This document shows positions 43,621 to 62,708 of a stretch of DNA of 64,000 bases, piece by piece; within the stretch, counting starts at the first letter, position 1; each line of letters begins with the position of its first letter. The stretch is from an uncultured Rheinheimera sp. (lineage in GTDB: Bacteria > Pseudomonadota > Gammaproteobacteria > Enterobacterales > Alteromonadaceae): contig CAZGHW010000007.1 in the NCBI GenBank assembly GCA_964525695.1, forward strand, positions 56,384-120,383. Reading direction: 5' to 3'. The notes beneath the pieces were generated by a model that was not told the origin of the DNA, searched no databases, and saw nothing but the letters and a program-made list of their open reading frames with translations. The position numbers and the translations under genes are program-made.

Positions 43621-43628
43621 ATCACATC

Positions 43629-45487: not shown

Positions 45488-45503
45488 AGCCAATCCTGCC
45501 CTG

Positions 45504-46220: not shown

Positions 46221-46228
46221 CTGGATAC

Positions 46229-46657
46229 CTACTGAATAAAAATATTGGTGATCAAAACTTTATCTAACTGATAGTCAAACTTATTCTCAGTCAGGCTTTG
46301 ATTAAAGGTACTCAGTAACTGTTGCTGCACCTGATCGATCTGCTGCATCGCCACTTTGACTTCCAAATGACTGCTGCTGGCAAAATGTGCCACCAGCGCA
46401 TTGCGCAACAGCGGCGTCACTTCTTTTAACGCCGCAATGGTGCTGGCTTTATGACTGACCAGTGTCAGTTCCAGCACCAAATATCTGGAGGTTGGATCGC
46501 CCGCCACGCTCATCACAAATTTATCCATCGGATAAAACAGCGGCTTTTCACTAAGCGCCTCCACTTCGGGCGCACTGAAATACTGAGTAAAACCAACATA
46601 ACCAGCAGCTGCGCCGCCTATCAGTAAGGCAATCAAGCCAAGCACTAATTTATTCAT
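46229..46657 (-). CDS. fliL: Flagellar basal-body-associated protein FliL
   Basis: 142 aa. N-terminal TM, then ...FYPMDKFVMSV......YLVLELTLV... typical of FliL. Confidence 0.8.
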   Translation of the reverse strand: MNKLVLGLIALLIGGAAAGYVGFTQYFSAPEVEALSEKPLFYPMDKFVMSVAGDPTSRYLVLELTLVSHKASTIAALKEVTPLLRNALVAHFASSSHLEVKVAMQQIDQVQQQLLSTFNQSLTENKFDYQLDKVLITNIFIQ

Positions 46658-46696
46658 CGCGTTATATTCCTTGTCTCTGCACGGCCATTGCCATGA

Positions 46697-47974: not shown

Positions 47975-48297
47975 CAGCGCATACTCTCATCAGTTTGCTG
48001 ATAGGCCAGCACTCCGGCTTTGTTGTGCTGGAATTCTTTCATTTTTTGCTCCAGCGCCAGTTGCTGTCGTTTTGCTTGCTGAATAATCTGCTGGTAACGC
48101 TGGGTCAGTAGTTGGAAATCATAAAGCGGTTGCACCGCAGCGCCGGTTTGGCGAAACTGCTGCAAAGTCTCAACCAAAGACAGGATCTGCCGGTCCAGTG
48201 CCTGCACTTGCAGCCACTTGCCAGCCAGCACGGCTTGTTGCAGTTGCAATAACAACTGCTGAATTTGTTTTAACTGCGCTTCTGCTGAACCCTGCAT
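47974..48297 (-). CDS. FliT-like small helical protein (LafD/LafX position)
   Basis: 107 aa, helical and Gln-rich. Located between fliS and fliK as in laf clusters. ATGA overlap with fliK. Assigned mainly by position. Confidence 0.45.
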   Translation of the reverse strand: MQGSAEAQLKQIQQLLLQLQQAVLAGKWLQVQALDRQILSLVETLQQFRQTGAAVQPLYDFQLLTQRYQQIIQQAKRQQLALEQKMKEFQHNKAGVLAYQQTDESMR

Positions 48298-48335: not shown

Positions 48336-48351
48336 AGCAAGAAACAAGCCA
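48336..48351 (-). promoter_or_regulatory. Sigma-54 promoter for fliT-fliK-fliL-fliA...
   Basis: Minus strand TGGCTT-GTTTC-TTGCT, with GG and GC at the canonical GG-N10-GC spacing and a -12 TTGCT. It ends about 38 nt upstream of the fliT ATG. Confidence 0.55.
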
Positions 48352-48401
48352 ACACTCAAGTTAATGATTTTAAAGTGTTTTAATAACAAAAACTGATGGG
48401 T

Positions 48402-48448
48402 GCGGAAGTTATACTTCCGCCTTGGCGGAAGTGCTGGTCGTAACTTCC
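48402..48448. promoter_or_regulatory. Candidate enhancer (UAS) for the sigma-54 activator, site A
   Basis: GCGGAAG-TTATA-CTTCCGC (perfect 7-N5-7 palindrome, 48402-48420), then GCGGAAGT-N10-ACTTCC (48425-48448). Its centre is about 90-95 nt upstream of the predicted start site. Confidence 0.4.
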
Positions 48449-48628
48449 TTTCCGTGCGGATGACTGCTTGCAGCAGTTGTCAGCGCTAGATTGGCATCGT
48501 AGAAAAAAGCTCGGCACATCTTTGATACGACAAAGAGTGCCGACCTTGTAAGCGAAAAACTGCAGGAAACAGTTGGCGGCATCGAGTGGTAGCGGGCCAA
48601 AGTCCAATAACAGGCCAGGCCTTGGCTG

Positions 48629-49024
48629 CTAGCCAGCTTGCCGGCTTAATAAGCCCTGCCAGCCTTGTTGGAGATCCGTCATGACAGTGCGGATCTGCGC
48701 CAGCTCGTTTAAATCATTTTTTAAACTGGCCTTGAGCAGGTTGTGGCCGCAGAATTCGTACAGCCGGTGCATATTCAGCGCCACTTCACCGCCTTTTTCC
48801 AGGTCCAGCGAAGCATCCAGTCCGCCGAGAATTTTCAGCAGTTTTTCCATGCCGATGGCTTTTTTATCAAAACGTTTGGCCTGCATATGACCTTCGACTC
48901 TGGCCAGTTCATCTAGGAAACCATCAAACAACATCTGCACCAGACTGTGAATATCGGCGCCTGAAGCTTTCACGTTCACGCTGGTATGTTGGTAGGCCTG
49001 ATAACCTTGTGCAAAATCTAACAT
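48629..49024 (-). CDS. fliS: Flagellin chaperone FliS
   Basis: ATG 49024 follows AAGAGG. ...YQHTSVNVKASGADIHSLVQMLFDGFLDEL... matches the FliS core. Confidence 0.85.
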   Translation of the reverse strand: MLDFAQGYQAYQHTSVNVKASGADIHSLVQMLFDGFLDELARVEGHMQAKRFDKKAIGMEKLLKILGGLDASLDLEKGGEVALNMHRLYEFCGHNLLKASLKNDLNELAQIRTVMTDLQQGWQGLLSRQAG

Positions 49025-49058
49025 CTGTACCTCTTTATCTAACTGGCGGAAAGAGCCA

Positions 49059-50351
49059 CTAAGAACCAAACTGCGACATTGAGCCTTCCAGCTGCGCTAT
49101 GGTGACCTGCATCTGGGTAAACTGTGCCAGATACCGCTTGTACACCAGATCCATCGAATACTCATGGCGCTTTTGTTTGGTCGTCACCATATCCAGGCTG
49201 CCCTGTAAACTTTGTTGTTTGTCTTTGAGCAAACCAAATTTTTTGGTGTAAGGCTCCAGCACCTGTTTTAAACCGCTGAATAAGCTGTTGTCAGTCACCA
49301 ACATCTGCTCCAGTCGGGCCGGATTATCTGCCAGCGCTTTTTCCAGCTTGGTTTTATTCAGCGACAACACACCGTTGCGATCAAACTCCAGACCGATAGC
49401 GGTCAGTGTGCTGCCCTGATAGCTTTTCTGAAAACCTTGCCGCAACTGGTTACCAACTGCCCGCGCCATACTATCGGAGTTGAGTGTGGCATCACTATTC
49501 ATTTGTTTCATCAGCGCATTGTAGCTGTCGACAAACTTTTTCAGCTTTTCTTCCACTGCCGCCGGATCTTGTTTCACTGTGACCTTAACCGGGGTATCAG
49601 CACCGGCCTGAACTTTTTTCAGCTCCAGTGTGACGCCAGTAATCACATCCGTCAGTTCGTTTTTATCAGACGTCACGGTAATGGGGTTTTGTGCACCCAC
49701 TTTGACGATGGCATCCTGCGCCGCTTTGAGTTCAGTCGCCCCGGCCACAGCTGCAGTCAGATTGGCACCGGACGTATCAGCGCCTGGCACAAAATTGAGG
49801 CTAACGGCTTTGGCAGCACCTGAGTCCTTGCTGGTAAGTACCAAAAAAGACTGACTGCCGCTTCGCATCACAGTGGCTTGCACGCCACTGTTATCGGCTT
49901 TTTTATTAATGGCATCTGCCAGCGCACTGATGCCGGAACCGGCAGGCAGACTAGACAGATCAACGGCAAATTCCTTGCCTGCCACCGTCAGTTCCAACTG
50001 GCCATCGGCAGGCAACAGGTCAGTGCTTTGAAATGTCAAAGATAACTGATGACGCTGCGCTAATTGCTGCACGAAAATTTCATAATCACCGGCCACTGCT
50101 TTACCGGAGGTTTTAATTGCCAACACCTCTTCATGGCTGCTTTTGCCGGTATTGCTCAGCAAATCTTGCTCAGTGGTAAATTTTTTCAGCATATCCTGCA
50201 TACTACCAAGACTGGTTTCGAGCTTTTTAAACGACGAAATCAGGCCGCTGAAACGATCCTGCTGGGTTTTTAACACTTTATCTTTACCAGCCCGTTCAAT
50301 CTGGGTGTACTGCTTGGCCAAGTAGGCCGGATCTATACTGGAAAACGCCAT
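49059..50351 (-). CDS. fliD: Filament cap protein FliD (LafB-type)
   Basis: 430 aa. N-terminal IDPAYLAKQYTQIE... and C-terminal ...YLAQFTQMQVTIAQLEGSMSQF heptad regions are typical of FliD. Confidence 0.85.
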   Translation of the reverse strand: MAFSSIDPAYLAKQYTQIERAGKDKVLKTQQDRFSGLISSFKKLETSLGSMQDMLKKFTTEQDLLSNTGKSSHEEVLAIKTSGKAVAGDYEIFVQQLAQRHQLSLTFQSTDLLPADGQLELTVAGKEFAVDLSSLPAGSGISALADAINKKADNSGVQATVMRSGSQSFLVLTSKDSGAAKAVSLNFVPGADTSGANLTAAVAGATELKAAQDAIVKVGAQNPITVTSDKNELTDVITGVTLELKKVQAGADTPVKVTVKQDPAAVEEKLKKFVDSYNALMKQMNSDATLNSDSMARAVGNQLRQGFQKSYQGSTLTAIGLEFDRNGVLSLNKTKLEKALADNPARLEQMLVTDNSLFSGLKQVLEPYTKKFGLLKDKQQSLQGSLDMVTTKQKRHEYSMDLVYKRYLAQFTQMQVTIAQLEGSMSQFGS

Positions 50352-50420
50352 CGTCTGGTCCTGCTACTGAAAGGGGGGTATAAAGCCTTAATCGCCGCAC
50401 TTGCCGCAGCGACTAAGGCT

Positions 50421-50446
50421 AAAAACCCCGGCGCTAGTGCGCCGGG
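50421..50446 (-). terminator. Intrinsic terminator after the flagellin gene
   Basis: Minus strand CCCGGCGC-ACTA-GCGCCGGG followed by GTTTTT, 27 nt after the stop at 50473. Confidence 0.75.
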
Positions 50447-50472
50447 CATCTTTATGAACCTAACAACTGGGA

Positions 50473-51306
50473 TTAACGTAACAGCTGGCTCACCATCTGG
50501 GTGGTGCTGTTGGCTGTGCTCAGTACCGAAATACCTGAGTTCAGCAACAGTTGCTGTTTGGTCATATTGGAGGTTTCTTTGGCAAAATCAGCATCCATCA
50601 GTTGGCTTTTGGCCGCACCGGTGTTTTCGGTCATATTGCCTAAGTTATTGATAGTGTGATCAAGACGATTCATGCTGGCACCTAGTGCGGAACGAGCAGT
50701 ACCGACGTTTTTTAAGAATGTATCGAGCGAATCAATTTCAGCGTTAGAAAGAGCTTGCGTGGTCAGATCTTTTAAATCAGTAACTTTTATAAGACCTAAC
50801 GATGCTGAAATATCAACTTTCAATACTTCATCTTTTGAAGCGCCAATTTGAAAATCGACGGCTGCGGCAAATTTCCCAGTGGTGGCGTCAAGTAACTTAG
50901 TGCCACTGCCGAATGAAGTATTTCCTAAAATATTGGTTAATTCTGATTTTAACGCTTGATACTCGCCATCAAAAGCTTTGTATTCGTCAGCGGAGTTAGT
51001 ACCGTTGGCCCCCTGAGTTGCCAGTTCTTTCATCCGGTAGACGATATTAGTCATCTCTTCAAAAGCACCTTCAGCCGTCTGTAGCATGGAAATGGCATTG
51101 TTGGAGTTATTGATCGCTGTTTCCTGACCGACCAACTGCGCGCTTAAACGTGAAGCGATTTGTAAACCAGCGGCATCGTCTTTGGCTGAGTTAATACGAA
51201 AACCTGTGCCTAAGCGCTCTAAGGCTACTGATAAACCATCGTTGGTGCGGTTTAATTGATTACGAATGGTGGTCGCTGCTGCGTTTGATTGAATTGATAA
51301 AGCCAT
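50473..51306 (-). CDS. lafA: Lateral-type flagellin (short, 277 aa)
   Basis: N-terminus MALSIQSNAAATTIRNQLNRT...RLGTGFRINSAKDDAAGLQIASRL and C-terminus ...AKSQLMDADFAKETSNMTKQQLLLNSGISVLSTANSTTQMVSQLLR. Confidence 0.95.
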   Translation of the reverse strand: MALSIQSNAAATTIRNQLNRTNDGLSVALERLGTGFRINSAKDDAAGLQIASRLSAQLVGQETAINNSNNAISMLQTAEGAFEEMTNIVYRMKELATQGANGTNSADEYKAFDGEYQALKSELTNILGNTSFGSGTKLLDATTGKFAAAVDFQIGASKDEVLKVDISASLGLIKVTDLKDLTTQALSNAEIDSLDTFLKNVGTARSALGASMNRLDHTINNLGNMTENTGAAKSQLMDADFAKETSNMTKQQLLLNSGISVLSTANSTTQMVSQLLR

Positions 51307-51339
51307 GTTGTTTACTCCTTAATAAAGTTCATAACTTAA

Positions 51340-51366
51340 GAGCGACCCGTACTGATAGAAACTAAA
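51340..51366 (-). promoter_or_regulatory. Sigma-28-like promoter for flagellin with a non-canonical -10
   Basis: Minus strand TTTAGTTT-N11-GGTCGCTC. It has the same architecture as TAAAGTTT-N11-GCCGATAA and the same -10 as the flgM site at 62706-62732. Confidence 0.45.
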
Positions 51367-51434
51367 ATTTTTTTCAGAATTTTTGTCAAATTTTTTGGCA
51401 ATGCACGGCTCAAGCTATGTTGGACGCCAAGCGT

Positions 51435-51526
51435 TGGACGCCAAGCGTTGGACTGCCCGGCAAGCCGGTCGAGTCCAACCTCCCCATGATAGTTGTGATG
51501 CTGAATTTAGCGACAGAGCATGGCAT
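51435..51526. repeat. 92-bp direct repeat, copy 1 (contains a REP-like hairpin)
   Basis: 90/92 identical to 51615-51706 (offset exactly 180 bp). Contains GTTGGACT-GCCCGGCAAGCCGGTCG-AGTCCAAC (51447-51479). Overlaps at its 5' end the second of two tandem 14-mers GTTGGACGCCAAGC (51419-51446). Confidence 0.9.
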
Positions 51527-51542
51527 CTGACTCAGTAGGTAG

Positions 51543-51582
51543 GTCGGACTCGACATGACGCGAAGCGTCAGGGCAGTCCGAC
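51543..51582. repeat. Related REP-like hairpin between the two repeat copies
   Basis: GTCGGACT-...TGACGC-GAA-GCGTCA...-AGTCCGAC. The outer 8-bp stem differs at one position per arm from the stems in the flanking copies. Confidence 0.7.
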
Positions 51583-51614
51583 AGAATCGATGGATAATTT
51601 TTTACAAGTTATGG

Positions 51615-51706
51615 TGGACGCCACGCGTTGGACTGCCCGGCAAGCCGGTCGAGTCCAACCTCCCCATGATAGTTGTGATGCTGAATTTAGCGATAGAGCA
51701 TGGCAT
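51615..51706. repeat. 92-bp direct repeat, copy 2
   Basis: See copy 1. The hairpin is at 51627-51659. Confidence 0.9.
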
Positions 51707-51734
51707 GCAGCCAAGCGTTAGATGCCACACGAGA

Positions 51735-52748
51735 CTAGCGTTGATCCGCCAGCGCAAATTCAACCAGACTGCGGCTGACATTGCCCTGCGCCATAATAGC
51801 CGCCAGCGACGAGGCAGCTCCGGTTTGCATTTGTTGCTTGAGTTCCTGGCTAAGCACTGCAACATCTTCTGCTGTTTGTCGATTGCCGGCCAAACGCAGA
51901 CTATTCAGCTTCGCCAACAGCTCTTGCCGCTCGGCTTGCACCTGACGTAATACCGTCTGTAACTTTTGCTGCACCTGGCTGATTTCAGCCTGATAAGCCT
52001 GCTGATTCTCTAGTTGCAACGCCTGTTCGGCCAGCACCTGCAAAGGCCCACTGACGGGCTGTAACCGCACACTGATTGGATTACCGGCGGCAATCCTGAT
52101 GCCCTCACCCTGCATTTGCCAGGGCTGAGTTAATTTTGCGGCATCTGAGACTTGGGTACTGAATTGCAACTGAGTGCCCTTGGCACTGACCAGGACCCCA
52201 GCGCCAGCAAAAGCTTGTTGCAACTGCGTTAAATTCTGCGCTGCACTTTGCTGCGCCGGCAGTGTTAATTGCACTTGCTGGCCATCCGCCAGCCGGAAAC
52301 TCAGTTGTTCGCTTTGTTTGCGCGGACTCAGTAAATCAATTTGATGGTTCAACCTGGCGCTAACACTGGCTAAAGGTTGCTGACGCAGTTGTAATTCTGG
52401 CCGTACTGCACTGTCTTTGTGCTTCAGCTGACTTTCCAGTTGCAGCAATTGCTCGCGCAGTTGTTGCTGCTGGCCTGGGCTTTGCGGTTGATTTAACTGT
52501 TTTTTCAGTTGCTCCAGTTGCTGATACAACTGGCGCAGTTGCTGTTCTGCCTGCTGATTTTTCGCCAGTTGCCGTGATACATCCGCGCTTAAGCTCCATT
52601 GACTGAGACTATCCAACTGTTGTTGCAAATGGCTGCCAGCGCTTTGTCGGCCACTAACCCCGGTTGCGACTGTCTGAGCGGCGCGGCCAGCTTGACTGGC
52701 AGCATTGCTGGCGACGGCAGAACTTGATTTCAGACTCTCAATCAGCAT
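51735..52748 (-). CDS. Gln-rich coiled-coil protein in the LafW position (axial-protein-like C-terminus)
   Basis: 337 aa. Follows flgL by 10 nt, as lafW does in Flag-2 clusters. The C-terminus ...LAAIMAQGNVSRSLVEFALADQR resembles flagellar axial-protein termini. No firm family assignment. Confidence 0.4.
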   Translation of the reverse strand: MLIESLKSSSAVASNAASQAGRAAQTVATGVSGRQSAGSHLQQQLDSLSQWSLSADVSRQLAKNQQAEQQLRQLYQQLEQLKKQLNQPQSPGQQQQLREQLLQLESQLKHKDSAVRPELQLRQQPLASVSARLNHQIDLLSPRKQSEQLSFRLADGQQVQLTLPAQQSAAQNLTQLQQAFAGAGVLVSAKGTQLQFSTQVSDAAKLTQPWQMQGEGIRIAAGNPISVRLQPVSGPLQVLAEQALQLENQQAYQAEISQVQQKLQTVLRQVQAERQELLAKLNSLRLAGNRQTAEDVAVLSQELKQQMQTGAASSLAAIMAQGNVSRSLVEFALADQR

Positions 52749-52758
52749 CAGCGCAACC

Positions 52759-53655
52759 TTATAACTGGCGGAATAAACTCAGTTGCGACACTGAGCCATA
52801 GACTTTGAGGGTGGCTTCATAAGAGGCCAGCGCATTATTCATTTCGATATAAGCCGACGGATAATGCACCACTGACAAATCATCGCGTAAGTTCTCAGTA
52901 AATAACGAAATTTCGCTGTTGGTATTTTCCAGCGATTCCAGCGAGCTGACGATACCGCCAATTTTAGTGACGGCATTGCTGACATTGCCCAGCACGCTGC
53001 TAAGTTTATCCAGCATCAAGCGCGACTCGGCACCAGCACCTGTGGCTGGCGGCGCTTGCAGCAAACTGACATAAGCCTGTAAATCATTTAAAAACGCCGC
53101 CCCTGGCACTAAATCGCTGCCAATGATATTGGCATCGACCAGGGTATTTTCCGCCACTGCCACTTTGCGCACTATGGCATCGCCCTGATATTGATACTGA
53201 CCGCTGGCATCCTTGATAAAAGGCGGCTGGTCAATGTCGCTGCCGGCAAACAAATAATTGCCATTGCCATCCCGGGCATTGAGTAAATCGGCAATACCCG
53301 GCATCAGCACAGCCATCTCGTTGGCCATGGCTTGTAACTCAGTCGTGCCATAAGAACCATCAGCGGCGGCCGTAGTCAGTGACTGCACCGATAACAATAA
53401 ATTGTTGATACTGCTCAGTTGCGTTTCTTGCTGGCGCAGCGTGTAAGTCACCAGCCCCATATTTTCGCCATATTGCTCCAGCGACGTCAGCTCGGAATTC
53501 AGTCGTAATACCAGCACGCTGCCCAGCGGATCATCGGAGGGCCGGGTGATTTTTTTATTGCTGGCCAGCTGTACCGACAACTGACTGTATTTTTCACTGC
53601 TTTGCTGAATGTTTCTGATGGTGGTGTCATGAAACTGACTGCTGCTTATCCGCAT
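52759..53655 (-). CDS. flgL: Hook-filament junction protein FlgL
   Basis: 298 aa. N-terminus MRISSSQFHDTTIRNIQQ... and a flagellin-like C-terminus. Confidence 0.85.
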   Translation of the reverse strand: MRISSSQFHDTTIRNIQQSSEKYSQLSVQLASNKKITRPSDDPLGSVLVLRLNSELTSLEQYGENMGLVTYTLRQQETQLSSINNLLLSVQSLTTAAADGSYGTTELQAMANEMAVLMPGIADLLNARDGNGNYLFAGSDIDQPPFIKDASGQYQYQGDAIVRKVAVAENTLVDANIIGSDLVPGAAFLNDLQAYVSLLQAPPATGAGAESRLMLDKLSSVLGNVSNAVTKIGGIVSSLESLENTNSEISLFTENLRDDLSVVHYPSAYIEMNNALASYEATLKVYGSVSQLSLFRQL

Positions 53656-53665
53656 AAAAATATCC

Positions 53666-55000
53666 TCAGAACATGCCCATCAGGGTGTTAAACATCTGAT
53701 CAGCCGTACTGATCACCTTGGCATTGGCTTCATACAGCTGACGGTAATAACTCAAATTAGCCGCTTCTTCATCCAAATTCACGCCGCTGACGCTGGCGCG
53801 GGCCGCCAATGCTTTGTCATTCAGCACCTGGGCGGTTTTCACGCTGGCCTGCACTTGTTTACTCTGAATGGCCACTTTACCAATCAAACCGTCATAGCCA
53901 GCCGCTCCGCCTTTGAGGGCATTAATCACCTGCAGTAAATTGCTGTTGTCACCTTTTCCACCGGCCGGTTGCCAGCCGCCAGCGCCATCGCTGATGCGGC
54001 CGCGAAAGCCCAGTTGGTCCGGGGTCAAGGTTGGATTGATCTGAATACTGCCCAGCGGATCGGCAGCATCAAAGGTAAATAAATGGGCGCCGGCATTGCC
54101 ATTTAAGTCAAAACCTTCCGCCAATTTGCTGTTGACCGAAGTGGCGATATTCTGCACCAGACTGCTGAGGTCTTGCCGGGCAGGCGCGAGCACTTCGGCT
54201 TGTACTTTTAACAAACCGCCTAAGCTACCGCCGGTGGTGGCAGGGACGGCAAACTGCTGGTTATTAAACTGTAAACTGACGCTGGTGCCAGCCACAGTTA
54301 AAGTGGCGGCGCGGTCTGACATCAGCAGCGGCGCACCGTTACTGGTGGCGATCTGAATAGTGCCATCCGCCTGCGGCATCACGTCTAATTGGATAAAACC
54401 GGCCAGTTGCTGCACTGCCCGCTCGCGGTTATCTAACAAAGTCGCAGTATCCTGACCCAGCGCCGTGGCTTTGCTGATACTGCTATTGAGTTCAGCCAGT
54501 TGTTGCAACAAACCATTGCTATTATCAGTGACCGCTTTGATTTCAAAGCCTAATTTTGCCATCTGGCCACTCAAAGCACCGTCCAGTTGTTGTAAATTCT
54601 GCACCATGGCACTGGCAGAGGAAATCACCTGCTGGCGGTAGGCTGGCGACTCAGGTGCCGACAACGAGGCATTAAAAGCTGAATTTAATTTCGCCACTGC
54701 ATCGTTCAGGTTCAGCGAATCTGTACCCAGCACTTGCTCCAGATAACCCAGATAATCCTGATAACTACGGTAATAACCAGTGTCAGACTGCGTGCGCCAG
54801 ATATCTTCGTTCAGGAAGTTATCCACCACCCGCTCGATTTTGTTGATTTTGACGCCATTGAGCGCCCCTTCGCTGGTTTGCAGCACCACCGTCTGACGGC
54901 TATAACCGGCCACTTTGGCGTTGGCGACGTTCTGGCTGACGATATTTAATCCGGCACCGGCGGCATGGAGACCCGAAACCCCGTTTAACAACATGCTCAT
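53666..55000 (-). CDS. flgK: Hook-filament junction protein FlgK
   Basis: 444 aa. N-terminal ...GLNIVSQNVANAKVAGYSRQ and C-terminal ...GVNLDEEAANLSYYRQLYEANAKVISTADQMFNTLMGM. Confidence 0.9.
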   Translation of the reverse strand: MSMLLNGVSGLHAAGAGLNIVSQNVANAKVAGYSRQTVVLQTSEGALNGVKINKIERVVDNFLNEDIWRTQSDTGYYRSYQDYLGYLEQVLGTDSLNLNDAVAKLNSAFNASLSAPESPAYRQQVISSASAMVQNLQQLDGALSGQMAKLGFEIKAVTDNSNGLLQQLAELNSSISKATALGQDTATLLDNRERAVQQLAGFIQLDVMPQADGTIQIATSNGAPLLMSDRAATLTVAGTSVSLQFNNQQFAVPATTGGSLGGLLKVQAEVLAPARQDLSSLVQNIATSVNSKLAEGFDLNGNAGAHLFTFDAADPLGSIQINPTLTPDQLGFRGRISDGAGGWQPAGGKGDNSNLLQVINALKGGAAGYDGLIGKVAIQSKQVQASVKTAQVLNDKALAARASVSGVNLDEEAANLSYYRQLYEANAKVISTADQMFNTLMGMF

Positions 55001-55551
55001 GACATTTTCTCACTATGACGCTGTGGCACCAGCAAAGGCTGACTGAGCGCTCTGCTGCCAAAATCCTGCTGAGCCTCGGCGGGTAATGCTGGCGCAACCG
55101 ATAATTGTGGCGCGACCACAGCTGACTCTGATGGATATAAAGTCACAGCGACAGCTTCGGTTGAAAACTTAAATTGCGCTGCCGAATTATTTTGCAGTTG
55201 ACTACTGGCAGCGGGCGCTTGCTGGTCTGTGGACGCGCTCAATTGCCGGACTATTTGCGCCGCCAGCCCGACCTGGCCCTGACCTGCCATCTGCTGCGCC
55301 AACTGACCGTCGTACATATCACGAAACAGTTGCTGCTCGTTGCTGCTAAACATCCCTTCATCACCGCTGACGGCATCACTGGCAGTGCGCATATTTTTCA
55401 ACACCAGCTGTAAAAACAAGGTTTCAAACTGCTCGGCCGCTTGTTGCAGCGCCTGGGTTTCATTGACATTGGGCGCTACCACTTGCTGTGGATCAAACGC
55501 CAGTTGCTGCTTGCTGCTCATCAGCGCGAGTCCGTCTATGGCTGGCATCAA
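54997..55551 (-). CDS. flgJ: FlgJ, rod-binding domain only (no muramidase domain)
   Basis: 184 aa. Rod-binding motif AAEQFETLFLQLVLKNMR....FRDMYDGQLAQQMAG. The remaining C-terminal ~80 aa, Gln/Ala-rich in part, shows no glycosidase motifs. 4-nt overlaps with flgI and flgK leave no room for a second domain. Confidence 0.7.
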   Translation of the reverse strand: MMPAIDGLALMSSKQQLAFDPQQVVAPNVNETQALQQAAEQFETLFLQLVLKNMRTASDAVSGDEGMFSSNEQQLFRDMYDGQLAQQMAGQGQVGLAAQIVRQLSASTDQQAPAASSQLQNNSAAQFKFSTEAVAVTLYPSESAVVAPQLSVAPALPAEAQQDFGSRALSQPLLVPQRHSEKMS

Positions 55552-56699
55552 ATCACCACCACATCAGCGTCCAGCGCGCCGGCTTTATCCAGTGCCAGTA
55601 AAATCGACATCAGTTCGGTTGGCGTCGCGCCCAGGCTATTGACCGCCTGCACTATGGTATCGAGCGAGGTGCCCTCAGGCCACACCATCATATTGGCGTT
55701 TTGCTGACTGACATCCACCCCGCTGCTCTGGGTTGGCACTGTGCGGCCCTGGCTAAAGGGCAACGGCTGGATAGCCCCTTCCTGCTCGCTGATGGTAATG
55801 GTCAGATTGCCATGACTGACGGCAGCGCGCTTGACCCGCACTTCATCGCTGATCACCACAGTGCCGGTCCGGCTGTTAAACACCACCCGTGGCCGCTGCG
55901 ATCCTTCATCGACCCGGATATCCTGCAACATCGCCATAAAGGTATTGCGACTGTCAGCATCTCGTGGCGCACTGACCACCAGCTTGGCCCAGTTTTCGGC
56001 GCGAGCGACCTTGGGTCCAAACATATCGTTGATGGCTTTCACCACATTGCGGGCGGTTTTGTGATTGGGCTTTTTCAGATTCAGCACCAAATCAGCCTCT
56101 TGTTGCAAAGATTCAACACTGCGCTCAATAATAGCGCCGCCCGGAATAATTCCAGCTGTTGGCACATTGACGGTGACTGACGAGCCATTTTGCCCTTCCG
56201 CTTTAATACCGCCTACCACCAGATTGCCTTGCGCTAGCGCATAAACTTTGCCATCAACACCACGCAGTGGCGTCAGCATCAGACTGCCGCCATGCAAACT
56301 TTTGGCATCGCCCAGCGACATAATGGTGACATCTATCGCTTGCCCCGGACTGCCCATCGGTGGCAAGGTGGCTTGCACTGCCACGGCGGCAACGTTTTTC
56401 GATTTGGGTAAAGTTGTTTCATCCAACTGCACGCCAAACTGTTTCAGCATATTGTTCAGCGACTGGGCGGCAAATTTGACCTGCGCTTTATCGCCAGAAC
56501 CTGGCAAACCAACCACCAGGCCATAACCCACCAGTTGATTATCCCGAATACCCTGAATATCGACGATATCCAGTAAAGGCCGGCTGGCCGCCTGGGCGCC
56601 AGCCAGCACCTGACCGCACAGGCAGCAAAGTGTCAGCAAACTCAAAGCCGCCAGGCGCTGGCCTGTGGCCCAAAGGCGTGTTGTCGCAGATGTCATCAT
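55548..56699 (-). CDS. flgI: P-ring protein FlgI
   Basis: 383 aa. Signal peptide, then ...IQGIRDNQLVGYGLVVGLPGSGD... and ...ALDKAGALDADVVVI. Confidence 0.95.
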   Translation of the reverse strand: MMTSATTRLWATGQRLAALSLLTLCCLCGQVLAGAQAASRPLLDIVDIQGIRDNQLVGYGLVVGLPGSGDKAQVKFAAQSLNNMLKQFGVQLDETTLPKSKNVAAVAVQATLPPMGSPGQAIDVTIMSLGDAKSLHGGSLMLTPLRGVDGKVYALAQGNLVVGGIKAEGQNGSSVTVNVPTAGIIPGGAIIERSVESLQQEADLVLNLKKPNHKTARNVVKAINDMFGPKVARAENWAKLVVSAPRDADSRNTFMAMLQDIRVDEGSQRPRVVFNSRTGTVVISDEVRVKRAAVSHGNLTITISEQEGAIQPLPFSQGRTVPTQSSGVDVSQQNANMMVWPEGTSLDTIVQAVNSLGATPTELMSILLALDKAGALDADVVVI

Positions 56700-56709
56700 T
56701 CGTCGCCTG

Positions 56710-57444
56710 TCAGAAAAAGTTCAAATATGAAGCAAACAATTTGGTCAGCCAGCCCGGCGCTGCACCATCGGCCAGCGTGCCTTTACCGGCATAAGTAATA
56801 CGGGCATCGGCAATCCGCTGGGAAGAAATCCGGTTGGTGACATCAATATCCTCCGGCCTGACCACCCCTTGTAAACGGATATATTCATCGCCCTGATTGA
56901 GCTTGATCCACTTTTCGCCGCGAATGGTTAAAGCGCCATTGCTGGCCACGGCCATCACCCGCACTGTGATAGCACCGCGCAAAAAATTCTGCTGACTGGC
57001 GCTACTTTCACCTTCAAAGTTTTGACCCGCGCCCAGTTGCAAAGCTAAATCCGACACATTGGCGTTGCCTGCCAGCGGCACCGCCATATTGACTTTACTG
57101 CTGCGATCCAGCGCGCTGTCAGCACTTTTGCTCGATTGGGTGCGTTCATCCAGCGACACCGTCAGGATATCGCCGACCCGATAGGCTCTTTTATCAGCGA
57201 ATAAGGTAAACATATAACCATCGTTATACAGACTACCGGCGCTGGCAGGCGGCGCGTCCTGACTGAGCAGTGGTGGCGCGGTACTGTCCCAGTCATCGGC
57301 ATCGGCCAACGGACTGTCCGGCTTGCTGCTGCAAGCCGCCAGCAATAACAAGCTGCAGAGCGCGCCAAACCAGCGGTAGTTTGCTTTGCTGTTGTTGCTG
57401 ACAACATGGCCATCAGCTCTCGCAAAGGGCGATTTTTTCATCAA
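56710..57444 (-). CDS. flgH: L-ring lipoprotein FlgH
   Basis: 244 aa. Lipobox LLAAC. Also ...GDILTVSLDERTQSSK... and ...ISSQRIADARITYAGKG. Confidence 0.9.
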   Translation of the reverse strand: MMKKSPFARADGHVVSNNSKANYRWFGALCSLLLLAACSSKPDSPLADADDWDSTAPPLLSQDAPPASAGSLYNDGYMFTLFADKRAYRVGDILTVSLDERTQSSKSADSALDRSSKVNMAVPLAGNANVSDLALQLGAGQNFEGESSASQQNFLRGAITVRVMAVASNGALTIRGEKWIKLNQGDEYIRLQGVVRPEDIDVTNRISSQRIADARITYAGKGTLADGAAPGWLTKLFASYLNFF

Positions 57445-57463
57445 GGCGTTCCTCGGGCTCGGC

Positions 57464-58249
57464 TTACATGGTCTGGGTGATAAAGTTCAGCATGTCATCC
57501 GCCGCCGATACCACCTTGGCGTTCATTTCATAAGCCCGCTGCACCGCAATCATATTAACCATTTCGTCCACCACACTGACGTTGGAGCCTTCCACTGTGT
57601 ATTGCTGCAACTGACCAAAAGCCTCTTCCCCCGGCACTCCCTCTAATGCTTCGCCTGAGCCAGCGGTGGCGCGGTATAAATTGCCGCCCAGCGCTTCTAA
57701 TCCAGCCGGATTAACGAAGCTCACGGTCAGAATTTGACCTAATTGCAATAATTCATCCTGACCGGCAATTTGCGCCGACACAGTGCCATCAGTGCCGATA
57801 GTGACCTTAGTCGCTTCCGGCGGAATGGTGATATTCTGCGCCAGCGGCAAGCCATTGCCATTGGTCAGCAGACCATCGGCATTGACATGAAACTGGCCGT
57901 TGCGCGAATACAACATCTCGCCATCCGGGCTTTCAATCTGGAAAAAACCCTGCCCGGTAATCGCGACGTCTAGCTGATTATTGGTGGTTTCAAAACTGCC
58001 TTCGGTAAAAACTTTCTGCGTGCCATTGACCCGCACGCCAGTGCCGACCTGGATGCCAGCCGGCACCTGGTTCAGTTCATCGGCCTGGGTGCCAGGCTGA
58101 CGCTGCACCTGATAAAATAAGTCTTCAAACACCACCCGATCTTTTTTAAAACCAACGGTATTGACGTTGGCCAGGTTGTTGGAAATGGTGGTCATCCGCA
58201 TATCCTGCGCCGCCAGACCGGTTTTACTGACCCATAATGCTGAATTCAT
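57464..58249 (-). CDS. flgG: Distal rod protein FlgG
   Basis: 261 aa. MNSALWVSKTGLAAQDMRMTTISNNLANVNTVGFK... and ...NVSVVDEMVNMIAVQRAYEMNAKVV. Confidence 0.95.
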   Translation of the reverse strand: MNSALWVSKTGLAAQDMRMTTISNNLANVNTVGFKKDRVVFEDLFYQVQRQPGTQADELNQVPAGIQVGTGVRVNGTQKVFTEGSFETTNNQLDVAITGQGFFQIESPDGEMLYSRNGQFHVNADGLLTNGNGLPLAQNITIPPEATKVTIGTDGTVSAQIAGQDELLQLGQILTVSFVNPAGLEALGGNLYRATAGSGEALEGVPGEEAFGQLQQYTVEGSNVSVVDEMVNMIAVQRAYEMNAKVVSAADDMLNFITQTM

Positions 58250-58262
58250 TGTCGTGACTCCG

Positions 58263-58991
58263 TTAGCCGCTAATCAGTTTATTGCCGGATACCGCCAGCT
58301 CGTCGGCGGTTTTCATCATCTTGAGGTTTAATTCAAACTGTCGGCTGATATTCATGGTGCTGACCATCTCTTCGACCGCATTGACATTGGAGCCTTCCAG
58401 TACGCCACTGCGCACTGTGACCGCTGGATCTTGCTCCAGCGGATTGCCATCTCTGGCTCTGAGTAAGCCATCATCGCCTTTGACCAAGACCACATCGCGG
58501 GCACTCACCAGCTTGATGCGTTCATCCTGCTCAATCACGCCACCACCGACCGGCAGCAGATTGAGGGTGCCATCGGCGCTGATATCGATATCGCCAAATT
58601 CCGGCAACTGAATATCCCCGCCCAGTCCCTGCACGGCATAACCATGCACCGTCAGCCGGCCATCGGCACCGACCTGTAATTCACCGGCTCTGGTATAAGC
58701 TTCGTTGCCATTGGCATCAGATACGGCAATCAGACCTTGCTCACTGACGGCAATATCTAAATCACGACCGGTTTCCATCACGGCACCGGCGCTTAAATCG
58801 GTCGCCACCGGCTGCAACTGCGCCTGAAAGCGGGTGCGAAAACCTTCGCCTGTCACCTGCAGTGCCCGTGCTTGCTCCATATCGGCTTTAAAACCAACGG
58901 TATTGACATTGGCCAGGTTGTTGGCGGTGATGCGCAGCGCGGTTTGCGCCAGTTCAGCGCCAGAAACGGCAGTATGAATTAACCTTTCCAT
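58263..58991 (-). CDS. flgF: Proximal rod protein FlgF
   Basis: 242 aa with axial-protein N- and C-terminal heptads. Located between flgE and flgG. Confidence 0.9.
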   Translation of the reverse strand: MERLIHTAVSGAELAQTALRITANNLANVNTVGFKADMEQARALQVTGEGFRTRFQAQLQPVATDLSAGAVMETGRDLDIAVSEQGLIAVSDANGNEAYTRAGELQVGADGRLTVHGYAVQGLGGDIQLPEFGDIDISADGTLNLLPVGGGVIEQDERIKLVSARDVVLVKGDDGLLRARDGNPLEQDPAVTVRSGVLEGSNVNAVEEMVSTMNISRQFELNLKMMKTADELAVSGNKLISG

Positions 58992-59000
58992 CTGCTACTC

Positions 59001-60338
59001 CTAAACCGCATTAAACAGGATTTGCATCATTTCATCGGCAGTGCTGATGGTTTTGGCATTGGCCTGATAACTTTGCTGGAACGACATTAAATCCACCAAC
59101 TGACCACTGATATCAACATTGGAGCCCATATAAGAGCCCGCCAGCAGCTTGCCAAAACTGCCCTCGCCCGCAGCGCCGATAATGGCAGCCCCGGACTGTT
59201 CACTGGCATACCACATGGTATTGTTGGCGGACTCTAAGCCCTGTGGATTAGCAAAAGACGCCAGCGCAATCTGGCCTTGTAATTTGGTGGCACCATTAGA
59301 AAAGGTCGCCAGCACCTTGCCATCCTCAGCCACAGAGACGCCGCTAAATTCGCCTGAGGTAAAACCATCGGCCTTGTTTTCATATAAACCAAAGGCACTG
59401 CCAAATTGGGTGGATTTGACTAAGTCCAGTTTGATGGACATATCTGCAGCGCCTGGCGGGGTAAACTTCAAGGTAACTTCGCGCAGGTTGAATGGATCAG
59501 ACACATTGTTATCTGGCCCTGGCTGAGGCACAGGTAAATCACCTATTGGCGCTAGCTGGCCTTTATTATCAAATTTTAATGTCAGCGCAGTAGTGTTCAC
59601 CACATTACCCGCGGCATTTTTTGCTTGTACCGTAGTCGTATTGGCTCCTGCAGGCAGCCCGAGCTTTGTTGTATCCAACGGGGCGCCATCCATGTAATAC
59701 AACACCTGCCACTCATTGTCGGCTTTATGATTAAAATACTGCGTCAGGGTATGGCTATTACCAAGTGAATCAAACACTTCGGTTGATTGAGAGTAGTTAA
59801 AAGCAGTGCCATTGGCCGGATCAAATATTGCTGGTGCGGTCGGCAGTGCGATCTTGCCACTAGCTGAATTTAAATTCAGCGAAAAATTAATATTTTCAGT
59901 GGCTTTGGCCGGAATATTGGCCGCTTCAATTTTTAAATCGGTCAACACGCCCGGGATCAGATTACCTCTTTCATCAATACCAAAACCCTGCAGTTTATTG
60001 CCATTGTTATTAATGATATGACGGTCGGCATCTAAGCCAAACTGTCCGGCCTGGGTAAAGGCCATTCGGCCATTTTCCGAGACCACAAAAAAACCTTTGC
60101 CAGTGATCGCCAAATCCAGATTCTGACCGGTTTTGACCAGGTTACCGGTTTTTTCAAAGTTCTCATTCACTGCCGCCACGTTGACGCCGCTGCGCTGGCC
60201 GCCATTGTAAATGGCAGAAAATTCACTACTGGCGGTTTTATAACCGGCGGTACCGGCGTTGGCGATATTGTTACTGGTGACTTCCAACGCCCGCTGAGTC
60301 GAAGACAAACCACTCAGGCCAATGTTAAACATAGACAT
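59001..60338 (-). CDS. flgE: Hook protein FlgE
   Basis: 445 aa. MSMFNIGLSGLSSTQRALEVTSNNIANAGTAGYK... and ...NVDISGQLVDLMSFQQSYQANAKTISTADEMMQIL. Confidence 0.9.
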   Translation of the reverse strand: MSMFNIGLSGLSSTQRALEVTSNNIANAGTAGYKTASSEFSAIYNGGQRSGVNVAAVNENFEKTGNLVKTGQNLDLAITGKGFFVVSENGRMAFTQAGQFGLDADRHIINNNGNKLQGFGIDERGNLIPGVLTDLKIEAANIPAKATENINFSLNLNSASGKIALPTAPAIFDPANGTAFNYSQSTEVFDSLGNSHTLTQYFNHKADNEWQVLYYMDGAPLDTTKLGLPAGANTTTVQAKNAAGNVVNTTALTLKFDNKGQLAPIGDLPVPQPGPDNNVSDPFNLREVTLKFTPPGAADMSIKLDLVKSTQFGSAFGLYENKADGFTSGEFSGVSVAEDGKVLATFSNGATKLQGQIALASFANPQGLESANNTMWYASEQSGAAIIGAAGEGSFGKLLAGSYMGSNVDISGQLVDLMSFQQSYQANAKTISTADEMMQILFNAV

Positions 60339-60349
60339 AACGACATCCT

Positions 60350-61042
60350 TTAACTTTGTGTTGCCTTCGACAACTGATTGATATCAAACAAGTAGTGATT
60401 ACCGAGGCCATTCACCTGCAAAATGATGTCATCTGGTCCGGCACCCACCGAGACCCGCTCCACCTCATTGGTCAGGTAAGTCGGCACCGCCTGACTGCCC
60501 TGACTGGTGCGCACTTCCGCCTGCACCCGGTAAGCGCCGGCCTCTTGTGGCGGGAACGCAAAACGCACAGTACCAATGGCTGGATTTTCCACCTTCAGCT
60601 GTTCGACCAGCTCGCCTTTAGCGTCATAAAGCCGTAGCGTCAGTTGTTCTGTTTTAGCGCCCAGATTGACAGCACCGGCCACGGCGGCTGTGGTTTCCAG
60701 TGACAGGGTATCGGCTTTGACATCAACTTTTTGTCCGACCAGGCTGGTTGCTTCCATCGCCTGCAAACTTTTCATATAACCCAGCTGCTGCGACGATTGC
60801 AGGCTGATTTTTTCCAGGCTCTCCACACTGCTAAATTCGGCCAATTGGCTGACATATTGGGTGCCATCCATTGGATTAAGCGGATTCTGATGGCTGATTT
60901 GCGCCACCAGCAGCTCCAGAAACATACTGGACATGCCAGCCGCATCCGACTTGCCATTGGCGGCAATCGCCTGACTGGCACCGGCTTGTTGCGCCGCAGT
61001 TTGGGCGCTATTGAGTGGATTAAGCGAATTCATCACAGACAT
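60350..61042 (-). CDS. flgD: Hook cap protein FlgD
   Basis: ATG 61042 follows AAGGAG. ...MFLELLVAQISHQNPLNPMDGTQYVSQLAEFSSVE... is typical of FlgD. Confidence 0.85.
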   Translation of the reverse strand: MSVMNSLNPLNSAQTAAQQAGASQAIAANGKSDAAGMSSMFLELLVAQISHQNPLNPMDGTQYVSQLAEFSSVESLEKISLQSSQQLGYMKSLQAMEATSLVGQKVDVKADTLSLETTAAVAGAVNLGAKTEQLTLRLYDAKGELVEQLKVENPAIGTVRFAFPPQEAGAYRVQAEVRTSQGSQAVPTYLTNEVERVSVGAGPDDIILQVNGLGNHYLFDINQLSKATQS

Positions 61043-61052
61043 CAGGCGCTCC

Positions 61053-61469
61053 TTATTGGCCAAGTTTCAGCAGGCTTTGCTGCATGCTGGACACCCGGTT
61101 CATCACTTCGACCGAGGTTTGAAAAGCGCGGGATGCCGACATCATGTCTGCCATCTCGGCCACCGGATTGACGTTGGAATAAAACACGTAGCCATCGGCA
61201 TTGGCGAGTGGGCTATTGGGTTCATAACGGCTTTCGACAGTGCGGTCCGACTGCACCACACCAAGGGTTTGCACCTGGGCTGATAAACTGGCGTCATCAA
61301 AACTCTGGCTGTACAGCGCCGAAAACACCGGCTTAATTGCCTTGTAGGCTTCAGCTTCGCTGGAGGCGGCGGTATCGGCATTGGCCAGATTGGAAGCCAC
61401 CGTATCCAGCCGCATCACCTGCGCCCGCATGGCGCTACCGCCGATGTCATAAATGGCAGAAAAAGACAT
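61053..61469 (-). CDS. flgC: Proximal rod protein FlgC
   Basis: 138 aa. ...RLDTVASNLANADT... and ...VNPVAEMADMMSASRAFQTSVEVMN. Confidence 0.95.
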   Translation of the reverse strand: MSFSAIYDIGGSAMRAQVMRLDTVASNLANADTAASSEAEAYKAIKPVFSALYSQSFDDASLSAQVQTLGVVQSDRTVESRYEPNSPLANADGYVFYSNVNPVAEMADMMSASRAFQTSVEVMNRVSSMQQSLLKLGQ

Positions 61470-61471
61470 CG

Positions 61472-61855
61472 TTAATCTCCTTTGATGGCTTTATGTAAGC
61501 CACTGATTTTCATGTTTAAAAAGGTCAGACTGGTTTGGAAGTCCATGCTGTTGGCAGCAAAATTAGCCTGTTCCACGCTCAGTTCAGCAGTATTACCATC
61601 CATCGACGGTTGAAACGGGATGCGGTATTTTTGTTCGGCTCTCACATCAGCATCGGTCAGCACCATGCCGTCGCGGCTATCCCGGCTCGTTAAATTGCTT
61701 TCGACTTGCTGCAAAATCCGGCCATAATCCAGATCGCGCGCCAGAAAACCTGGTGTGTCGACATTGGCCAGATTGCCTGAGATAATCTCAGCTCTGTCAA
61801 GCCGCAGTTGTAATGAAAACGGATGCACGCCTAAGGCTTTATCAAACATATCCAT
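61472..61855 (-). CDS. flgB: Proximal rod protein FlgB
   Basis: 127 aa. ...RAEIISGNLANVDTPGF.. First gene of the flg operon. Confidence 0.9.
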   Translation of the reverse strand: MDMFDKALGVHPFSLQLRLDRAEIISGNLANVDTPGFLARDLDYGRILQQVESNLTSRDSRDGMVLTDADVRAEQKYRIPFQPSMDGNTAELSVEQANFAANSMDFQTSLTFLNMKISGLHKAIKGD

Positions 61856-61892
61856 CTTGGTTCCCGCTTCGTCATCGTCAGTAGCTGGGTAC

Positions 61893-61908
61893 TACAAGAA
61901 TAGTGCCA
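61893..61908 (-). promoter_or_regulatory. Sigma-54 promoter for flgBCDEFGHIJKL
   Basis: Minus strand TGGCAC-TATTC-TTGTA. The -24 element is perfect; the -12 reads TTGT instead of TTGC. It ends about 38 nt upstream of the flgB ATG. Confidence 0.5.
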
Positions 61909-61931
61909 TCCATAAAAGGCTTTATTATTGA

Positions 61932-62708
61932 ATGATTTACCTTATATTTAACTTAGCAAAAACCAGCAAAGCGGAAGCTAAACTTCCGCGGCGGAATAGT
62001 GGCAACTTCCGCCATTGGCTGTGGTTATTGTGCTTATTGTCATGGCCTGGAGCGGCCAGTATTGCCGAACAAGTCCGGGCCCATATCAGTGCTGAAATCC
62101 AGCAGTACGGCCAGGGCGCGGGATTTAACGCTGTGCCCAAACAGCAGATTGAAGTCAAACTGCCGGCGGGCCTGAGCGGGAAAAAAAACTGTGGCAAGCT
62201 ACAGATCAGCCGCAGTAACCCACAACAAGCGCCCTGGGGTCGGCTTAGTTATACCTTGCGCTGTCAGGAGGCTGGTCAACACTGGCAAAGCCGTGCCAGT
62301 GCCAAAGTCAGTGTGTGGCTACCCTTAGTTGTCGCCAGCCGCAGTATTGGCAAAGATGAATTGATCAGCCCTGACATGCTAAGTACACGCTTAACTGAAT
62401 TAAGCCACAGCAAACTTGGGCTGACGCTGGATCCAAAGCCGCTAATTGGCATGCAGGCGAAAAAACGCCTGGCGGCTGGCCAACCAATCAGTCGGCAACT
62501 TCTGACGTCCGCCCTGCTGGTCAGTCGCGGTGAGCAGGTGCTGATCACGGTGCAAAGTGGCGGCTTTAGTGCCAGCACCAAGGGGTTGGCACTGGCCGAT
62601 GGTCGTTATGGTGAGCGCATTAAAGTGCAGAATTTAACTTCGGGCACTGTGCTTGAAGCCAAAGTGGTGGCAGAAGCCACAGTACAAACAATTTTAAAAT
62701 CAGATTAA
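61932..62708 (+). CDS. flgA: P-ring assembly chaperone FlgA
   Basis: 258 aa. Signal-like ...WLWLLCLLSWPGAASIA and a C-terminal SAF domain ...GEQVLITVQSGGFSASTKGLALADGRYGERIKVQNLTSG. The start is uncertain because the first 27 codons overlap the candidate enhancer. Confidence 0.8.
   Translation: MIYLIFNLAKTSKAEAKLPRRNSGNFRHWLWLLCLLSWPGAASIAEQVRAHISAEIQQYGQGAGFNAVPKQQIEVKLPAGLSGKKNCGKLQISRSNPQQAPWGRLSYTLRCQEAGQHWQSRASAKVSVWLPLVVASRSIGKDELISPDMLSTRLTELSHSKLGLTLDPKPLIGMQAKKRLAAGQPISRQLLTSALLVSRGEQVLITVQSGGFSASTKGLALADGRYGERIKVQNLTSGTVLEAKVVAEATVQTILKSD
61971..62012. promoter_or_regulatory. Candidate enhancer (UAS) for the sigma-54 activator, site B
   Basis: GCGGAAG-CTAAA-CTTCCGC (perfect 7-N5-7, 61971-61989), then GCGGAA-N8-ACTTCCGC (61991-62012). 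Its centre is about 100 nt upstream of the predicted flgB start site. Confidence 0.4.

Follow-up and report, generated by a model that had tools for sequence, protein, structure and literature searches.

Two composite dyad sites, each located upstream of a sigma-54-type promoter, were found in a 64,000-nucleotide (nt) stretch of DNA from an uncultured Rheinheimera sp. (GenBank assembly GCA_964525695.1, contig CAZGHW010000007.1, positions 56,384 to 120,383 of the forward strand; hereafter, the window). These sites are very probably the upstream activating sequences (enhancers) of LafK, the sigma-54 activator encoded by the same cluster, which is predicted to bind both of them. Judging from its genes, the window carries a Rheinheimera flagellar cluster of the LafK type, Flag-2-like and "lateral" by homology. 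LafK is known as the master switch of the lateral (swarming) flagella of Vibrio parahaemolyticus and Aeromonas and of E. coli Flag-2; a connection with type III secretion has also been reported. One composite site (site A) precedes promoter A and orf107, the other (site B) precedes promoter B and flgB, and transcription would start at these two predicted promoters. Four of the features by which the enhancer of a sigma-54 promoter is recognised were observed here, namely a position upstream of the -24/-12 element, paired dyads, a cognate activator, and conservation together with co-distribution with the activator type.

The first-pass annotation of the window had noticed two perfect 7-N5-7 palindromes with identical arms, and both 19-mers were found in their places (Table 1). 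The wider second dyads described next to them were borne out as well. In the direction of transcription, each site shows the same order of distal dyad, proximal palindrome, AT-rich spacer and promoter. The half-site of the site A distal dyad that is closer to the promoter (CTTCCGC on the minus strand) corresponds to a third half-site which is conserved in the relatives described below. As had been claimed, the exact palindrome occurs in the 64 kilobases (kb) only at the two positions upstream of the promoters. When up to 2 mismatches were allowed, 3 matches were obtained, as compared to 0.16 expected from shuffled sequences, and the third match (at 16494, with 2 mismatches) lies in unrelated DNA. 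The GGAA-N7-TTCC core is also present in 3 copies, with about one expected, and only the two reported ones have a sigma-54 promoter 45-80 nt away. GCGGAAG by itself is not rare in the window (13 copies with respect to 8.7 expected, 7 of them solitary), so that the remark that a single lone half-site exists was inaccurate, though unimportant.

Both sigma-54 promoters that had been proposed were recovered on the minus strand, before orf107 and flgB; the -12 element of the flgB promoter reads TTGT and not TTGC. A scan for the sigma-54 consensus with 3 mismatches performed at chance level (467 matches vs. 474 expected). Within the cluster, no good GG-N10-G match other than promoters A and B falls in a sizeable intergenic gap; the one remaining intergenic match (46678-46693) sits in the 39-nt gap between fliK and fliL and has no box nearby. 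Measured from the centre of the palindrome to the first G of the GG, site A stands 61 nt and site B 73 nt from its promoter, which places the centres at about -85 and -97, respectively, from the expected start, in agreement with the 90-100 nt initially estimated. In the relatives, the TGGC-N7-TTGCT form of promoter A is kept, and nearly all flgB promoters have the form TGGCA(C/T)-N5-TTGT(A/T). The -12 element of flgB is TTGT(A/T) also in Vibrio campbellii and TTGA in Aeromonas hydrophila and in two other sequences (L016 and L184), and only in E. coli 042 it is the canonical TTGC. This conserved departure from the sigma-54 consensus may reflect a stronger dependence on the activator.

Conservation in relatives having the same cluster, the absence of which the first-pass annotation had named as a reason to abandon its proposal, turned out to be strong. 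With FlgI as a probe, 80 loci of about 21 kb each were fetched from species-representative genomes (lafK falls outside these stretches). Including the window, 40 syntenic loci reached the region upstream of flgB and 27 reached the fliS-orf107 region. The palindrome was present in all of them, 40 out of 40 at the flgB site and 27 out of 27 at the orf107 site, in at least six genera (Rheinheimera, Alkalimonas, Bowmanella, Pseudoalteromonas, Aestuariibacter and Shewanella, plus unnamed relatives) among which the identity of FlgA drops to 31-35%. Over these 40 + 27 sites the arms hold about 2 bits of information per position and the 5-nt spacer almost none. The distance to the promoter is equally rigid: from centre to GG it is 61 nt in all 27 loci at orf107 and 73 nt throughout the 40 loci at flgB, except for three Shewanella with 72 nt, although the spacer is divergent in sequence. 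On the side distal to the promoter, the third half-site, CTTCCG, is invariably separated from the palindrome by 2-4 nt. At flgB, a further GGAA 10 nt past this half-site completes a second dyad, whose centre is 21.5 base pairs (bp) from that of the first. At site A, TTCCG is found 2-4 nt from the palindrome in all relatives, with a variable outer GGAA. The resulting consensus is aGGAAaa..a.ccgCTTCCGc.GCGGAAGta.tgCTTCCGCttTt for the flgB site and TTCcG....GCGGAAGt...aCTTCCGCttt for the orf107 site.

The specificity of the motif was evaluated on 21 other flagellar loci, from Ideonella, Aquabacterium, Paludibacterium, Cellvibrionaceae, Halomonas and others; a sigma-54 flgB promoter is present in 14 of them. 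The GGAA-N7-TTCC core was found in none of the 21 within 260 nt upstream of flgB (or from -400 to +200), as compared to 40 ingroup regions out of 40 having both the core and a sigma-54 promoter. Similarly, CGGAA-N7-TTCCG occurs in 59 copies in 844 kb of ingroup loci and is absent from 672 kb of outgroup loci. A metagenome scan for the composite form TTCCG-N1-4-GCGGAAG-N5-CTTCCGC gave at least 120 stretches. Among the matches listed, 18 had a sigma-54-like promoter at 61, 62, 72 or 73 nt, all of them in flgA/flgB or fliS/orf107 contexts, and about 100 of the 120 were unrelated stretches, for the most part hairpin repeats rich in GC that lack sigma-54 promoters; these same matches gave no evidence of non-flagellar LafK targets. 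Multi-copy hairpin repeats with GCGGAAG...CTTCCGC arms and without flagellar genes were observed in the metagenome contigs L095, L131, L136, L138, L157, L158, L193 and L194 and likewise in L096, L129, L135, L148 and L161. The large JGI12316J15310 contigs repeatedly carry one such family, in many cases with CGGCACTCGAAATGCT at 51 nt. These repeats are unrelated families that share the sequence of the arms.

A weaker form of the box, GGAA-N7-TTCC, was found upstream of sigma-54 promoters in the Flag-2 cluster of E. coli 042 and in the lateral clusters of V. campbellii and A. hydrophila. The box of A. hydrophila flgB_L (CGGGAAA-CAGTG-CTTCCCC) is preceded by CTTCC, lies inside flgA and is 74 nt from TGGCATGAGTCTTGAT. 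On chromosome 2 of V. campbellii, boxes are located at flgB_L (50 nt) and fliD_L (62 nt). E. coli 042 Flag-2 contains three boxes, upstream of lfgB (60 nt, TGGCACAGCGATTGCT), of fliD (49 nt, CGGAAAcgtcaTTTCCG) and of an operon encoding a hypothetical protein and a glycosyltransferase (49 nt, GCGGAAAcggatTTTCCGC). Across the clusters, the distances fall into three classes (49-50, 60-62 and 72-74 nt) that are 11-12 bp apart; this is about one helical turn and would fit a requirement for a single face of the helix. The position of the second box varies: it lies between fliS and the open reading frame (ORF) in fliT position in the Rheinheimera-to-Shewanella clade (48298-48628 of the window) and upstream of fliD in E. 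coli 042 (L084, 26837-27040) and V. campbellii (L085, about 9590-9800).

Two further elements of this kind were noticed. The third E. coli 042 box (L084, 11976-11994; about 301976 of NC_017626.1) is a perfect GCGGAAA-N5-TTTCCGC, 49 nt upstream of CGGCACGCTTATTGCA, and the genes for the hypothetical protein and the glycosyltransferase lie between fliJ and flgN. This arrangement suggests that LafK may also drive a probable flagellin-modification operon in this strain. In two Vibrio species, a conserved LafK-box-like element (GGGAAGTTTTAyTTCC plus CGGAAC), oriented towards fliM_L, is contained in the 5' coding part of motY_L (L085, 19198-19224, in V. campbellii; L082, 9259-9285, in V. thalassae); no recognisable -24/-12 promoter was found within 110 nt of it.

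The gene that had been taken for a sigma-54 activator in the first-pass annotation encodes indeed a LafK orthologue with a conserved helix-turn-helix (HTH). Pfam matches identified Sigma54_activat, with the GAFTGA motif, and HTH_8 at residues 388-424. When the receiver-like domain was inspected against the canonical receiver motif, VVLAAPLP was found in place of the phospho-acceptor Asp. The protein shows 60% identity to A. hydrophila LafK in an alignment covering 86% of the length, several of its close matches are named LafK by NCBI, and its closest solved relative is V. cholerae FlrC (4QHS, E = 3e-86). Among 13 aligned orthologues, which extend from Rheinheimera to the truncated protein of E. 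coli 042, the recognition helix RALRY of the HTH is invariant, in keeping with the conserved GGAA core. The gene is adjacent to fliE in the window, A. hydrophila, V. thalassae and E. coli 042, and also in V. campbellii according to the gene order obtained by blast.

On these grounds a mechanism can be proposed. A LafK dimer would bind the proximal palindrome through its C-terminal Fis-type HTH, recognising CGGAAG-N5-CTTCCG (a 5-N7-5 dyad, 12 bp from half-site to half-site), and a second dimer would occupy the weaker distal dyad, of which the half-site next to the palindrome is the well-conserved one. Together, the two dimers would nucleate the AAA+ ring at about -85 of the orf107 promoter or -97 of the flgB promoter. 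Bending of the AT-rich spacer, probably by IHF, would then bring the ring to the sigma-54 holoenzyme at -24/-12, and the promoter would be opened through ATP hydrolysis. In this way promoter B would drive the rod, hook and ring genes from flgB to flgL, and promoter A would drive fliK and fliL together with the genes for the lateral sigma-28, the stator and the export apparatus. As for the bend, an IHF-like box (WATCAANNNNTTR with at most 1 mismatch) was found between enhancer and promoter at site A in 17 of the 27 loci, mostly at one fixed position (about 4.5 in shuffled sequences). At site B it was found, likewise at a fixed position, in 26 of the 40 loci (about 5.7 in shuffles), where it overlaps the start codon and ribosome-binding site (RBS) of flgA; the corresponding position of the window itself matches the IHF consensus poorly. 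IHF may take part at these promoters.

The attribution of the sites to LafK has to be weighed against a different binder. They might be real protein-binding enhancers or operators recognised by a polar activator of the FlrC/FleR type, or by an unrelated dimeric regulator, encoded outside the window. We regard this as improbable. The AAA+ domain of LafK is indeed closest to that of FlrC; nevertheless, the motif goes with clusters of the LafK type, the 14 sigma-54 flgB promoters of other flagellar systems lack it, the recognition helix does not change wherever the core is kept, and position and helical phasing are those of the enhancer of a sigma-54 promoter. Moreover, the motif is present in E. 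coli 042, where the Flag-2 locus supplies a LafK homologue and the primary flagellum is not known to use a sigma-54 activator. A binder other than LafK fits the distribution less well than LafK. Several observations nonetheless weigh against LafK as the ligand or against the enhancer assignment as a whole. The case for LafK is built on sequence comparison, and the window is only 64 kb of a genome in which an activator encoded elsewhere could recognise the sites. The co-occurrence of lafK and motif was checked directly in the window, A. hydrophila, V. campbellii and E. coli 042 only, and for several related species LafK was recorded only by name among the protein matches. Since the composite motif also occurs in the unrelated hairpin repeats of metagenomes, its sequence alone is not diagnostic. 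The geometry of the distal dyad differs between the two sites (N14 between GGAA and TTCC at site A, N10 at site B), and the -12 element of the flgB promoter is noncanonical. Finally, the flgA start codon and RBS lie between enhancer and promoter at site B, and together with the flgA coding sequence they explain in part the fixed spacing and the conserved AT-rich box observed there.

This last point raises the question of whether DNA or protein is conserved at site B, which, as had been reported, lies within the 5' end of flgA (codons 14-27 of the ORF starting at 61932). If selection acted on the FlgA N-terminus only, the likeness to site A would be a coincidence or the remnant of a duplication. 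Throughout the Rheinheimera-to-Shewanella clade, the reading frame of flgA through the palindrome is in fact constant, 13 codons past the conserved start, and reads GCG GAA Gnn nnn CTT CCG (A-E-x-x-L-P, followed by x-R-K before the core of the signal peptide). A constraint on the DNA is indicated by the synonymous third positions of the arms, which are invariant while neighbouring codons vary, by the dyad of the E. coli flgB site, which is read in another frame, and by the same motif being conserved in 27 loci at the non-coding site A, as well as present upstream of fliD in E. coli and Vibrio. Pure coding constraint was for these reasons rejected, and we give it hardly any credence. Formation of an RNA hairpin is another reading of a palindrome, since each of the two can fold into a 7-bp stem with a 5-nt loop and the consensus continues with TTT(T) in the direction of transcription; site A would then be a terminator or attenuator after fliS, and site B a structure in the flgA mRNA or in an antisense RNA. 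This is very unlikely. The stems are invariant instead of covarying, with natural variants (L024, L032 and L035) that make A-C mismatches, and the invariant distance to the -24/-12 promoter would be left unexplained. An intrinsic terminator at the palindromes was rejected because the terminator scan lists nothing there, no gene ends upstream of site B on that strand, and fliS has its own separate and stronger hairpin with a T-run upstream of site A, likely the terminator of the preceding unit. This simple scan accepts T-runs starting 0-2 nt after the stem and omits the fliS hairpin, whose T-run was read as starting 3 nt after it; similar hairpins precede site A in several relatives.

As LafK enhancers, the two sites are elements of a conventional kind for a known family of regulators; what is new is the motif itself, its breadth, the rigid phasing and the embedding in flgA. 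At glnAp2 of enteric bacteria, NtrC binds as a dimer, through a Fis-type HTH, to 5-N7-5 (17-bp) dyads upstream of -24/-12, and a strong and a weaker dyad nucleate the AAA+ oligomer with dependence on the face of the helix. The LafK sites share the 17-bp geometry, the pairing of a strong with a weaker dyad and the downstream -24/-12 promoter. They differ in the half-site (CGGAA as compared to TGCAC), in being nearer to the promoter (about -73 to -97 instead of about -110 and -140), in the 21.5 bp between dyad centres at flgB, and in the degenerate receiver of LafK, which is probably not phosphorylated. FleQ of Pseudomonas and FlrA of Vibrio resemble LafK in being master flagellar sigma-54 activators whose N-terminal domain is not phosphorylated. 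The published FleQ box (GTCaNTAAATTGAC) is unrelated in sequence to the LafK box, and the regions upstream of the outgroup sigma-54 flgB promoters do not contain GGAA-N7-TTCC. The V. cholerae FlrC sites act as true enhancers of class III genes and are typically located downstream of the transcription start (PMC6504787); the LafK sites, in contrast, lie upstream at a fixed phase, and, unlike FlrC, which is phosphorylated at D54, the LafK of the window does not have the acceptor Asp. The closest parallel in terms of regulator family and target operons (flgB_L, and the fliD/fliT-fliK-sigma-28 unit) is given by the LafK-dependent class II promoters of V. parahaemolyticus and A. hydrophila, for which no published enhancer was found in the searchable literature; RpoN binds the flgB2 promoter in V. 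parahaemolyticus (PMC9817140). In the window, the second box lies between fliS and the ORF in fliT position and not before fliD, as in Vibrio and E. coli. The first-pass annotation had stated that no binding motif is known for LafK-type regulators. In agreement with this, we found no published LafK binding site in the searchable literature, some key older papers being outside that scope; the papers found deal with the genetics of LafK, with the binding of RpoN at flgB2 and with further regulators of lafK, and a literature search with the letters of the motif matched primer sequences only.

The window belongs to Rheinheimera; the best match of its FlgI among the species-representative genomes is 92% identical. 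According to the ORF map and to family matches, nearly all flagellar genes are on the minus strand, with flgN-flgM-flgA divergent from flgB. The extents of the two operons are presumed from gene spacing (Table 1). In the operon of promoter B, flgB was identified by a family match, FlgI through the relatives and the ORF in flgL position by its flagellin-N domain; the remaining genes were named by order and size. Past the flgL unit, the order of transcription is lafA, fliD, fliS and then site A. The flagellin scored 350.5 bits with the LafA_2 model, just below the cut-off of 365. The unit of promoter A consists of orf107 (in fliT/lafX position), fliK, fliL, the sigma-28 gene, motA, motB, a PilZ-like ORF, fliM, fliN, fliP, fliQ, fliR, flhB and flhA. 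The gene following promoter A had been called fliT, a name which is positional only, considering that the 107-amino acid (aa) product of this ORF matches no family. Beyond flhA, a gap of 441 nt separates this unit from motY, lafK and fliE to fliJ. A scan with the sigma-28 pattern gave no convincing late promoters. At the low-coordinate edge of the flagellar cluster (about 24700-28500) there is a low-GC patch (44-45%) containing a PrlF-type antitoxin, a relative of REP-associated tyrosine transposases, an RHS core fragment and an ankyrin-like ORF. The patch resembles the boundary of an island or a toxin cassette.

Table 1. Coordinates of the two composite sites, their promoters and the surrounding genes in the window (strand as assigned; a point where none applies).
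Feature	Position	Strand	Remarks
Site A proximal palindrome, GCGGAAG-TTATA-CTTCCGC (GCGGAAGTTATACTTCCGC)	48402..48420	.	centre 48411
Site A distal dyad, GCGGAAG-N12-ACTTCC (GGAA-N14-TTCC)	48425..48448	.	
Site B proximal palindrome, GCGGAAG-CTAAA-CTTCCGC (GCGGAAGCTAAACTTCCGC)	61971..61989	.	centre 61980
Site B distal dyad, GCGGAA-N9-CTTCCGC (GGAA-N10-TTCC)	61991..62012	.	centre 21.5 bp from proximal centre
Promoter A, sigma-54-type -24/-12, TGGCTT-GTTTC-TTGCT (TGGCTTGTTTCTTGCT)	48336-48351	-	scan requiring GG and the -12 G
Promoter B, sigma-54-type, TGGCAC-TATTC-TTGTA (TGGCACTATTCTTGTA)	61893-61908	-	same scan; atypical -12 TTGT
IHF-like box, AATCATTAACTTG	48357..48369	-	1 mismatch to WATCAANNNNTTR; between enhancer and promoter A
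Hairpin and T-run after fliS	48503..48542	-	likely terminator of upstream unit; fold -23.6 kcal/mol, z = -3.9
LafK orthologue, 436 aa	34112..35422	-	receiver-like domain, AAA+ sigma-54 activation domain, Fis-type HTH
Presumed operon of promoter A	36855..48297	-	no gap >39 nt; family matches
orf107	47974-48297	-	107 aa; family search without match
Sigma-28 gene	45504-46220	-	within presumed promoter A operon
Presumed operon of promoter B, flgB to flgL and a 337-aa ORF	51735..61855	-	ORF map
flgN-flgM-flgA	61932-63576	+	divergent from flgB
flgA	61932..62708	+	family match; divergent from flgB

LafK boxes are absent from the operon of lafK itself (motY-lafK-fliE to fliJ). The 441-nt gap that precedes this operon contains a c-di-GMP-I (GEMM-I) riboswitch aptamer, responsive to cyclic di-GMP (c-di-GMP), at 36456-36546 on the minus strand, with 61.9 bits against a gathering score of 35. 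In A. hydrophila, lafK is preceded by a higher-scoring one (80.9 bits; L081, 9775-9862, plus strand), and the Vibrio and E. coli 042 loci gave no match; no link between a riboswitch and lafK was found in the searchable literature. Since LafK does not have the phospho-acceptor Asp, control is probably exerted on its amount. A cascade is likely in which c-di-GMP sets the amount of LafK, LafK activates the two operons bearing the box, one of which includes sigma-28, and the late genes follow. The PilZ-like product mentioned above, a 143-aa ORF between motB and fliM (43189-43620, minus strand), gave a weak PilZ-domain match (E = 0.0013, under the Pfam cut-off) and may be a YcgR-like c-di-GMP brake within the LafK-dependent operon.

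We also considered a broader and rather doubtful proposal, according to which the LafK box would be a general phased enhancer code of Flag-2-type systems from Enterobacteriaceae to Alteromonadales, with positions at about 49, 61 and 73 nt from the GG, and the flgB copy, when bound by LafK, would act also as a roadblock to flgA-flgM-flgN transcription. If the roadblock were real, switching on the rod and hook operon would lower the level of the anti-sigma-28 factor FlgM. As regards the family, the different placement of the second box, before fliD or before the ORF in fliT position, means that the class II architecture differs between lineages, and site B would be a clear example of an enhancer contained in the protein-coding part of an adjacent gene. 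The riboswitch would tie the expression of the lateral master regulator directly to c-di-GMP. Finally, a conserved box, sGGAAr-N5-yTTCCs with a promoter-distal TTCCG and a fixed phasing, is a precise target for footprinting, chromatin immunoprecipitation and reporter work, and would allow the LafK regulon to be predicted from sequence.

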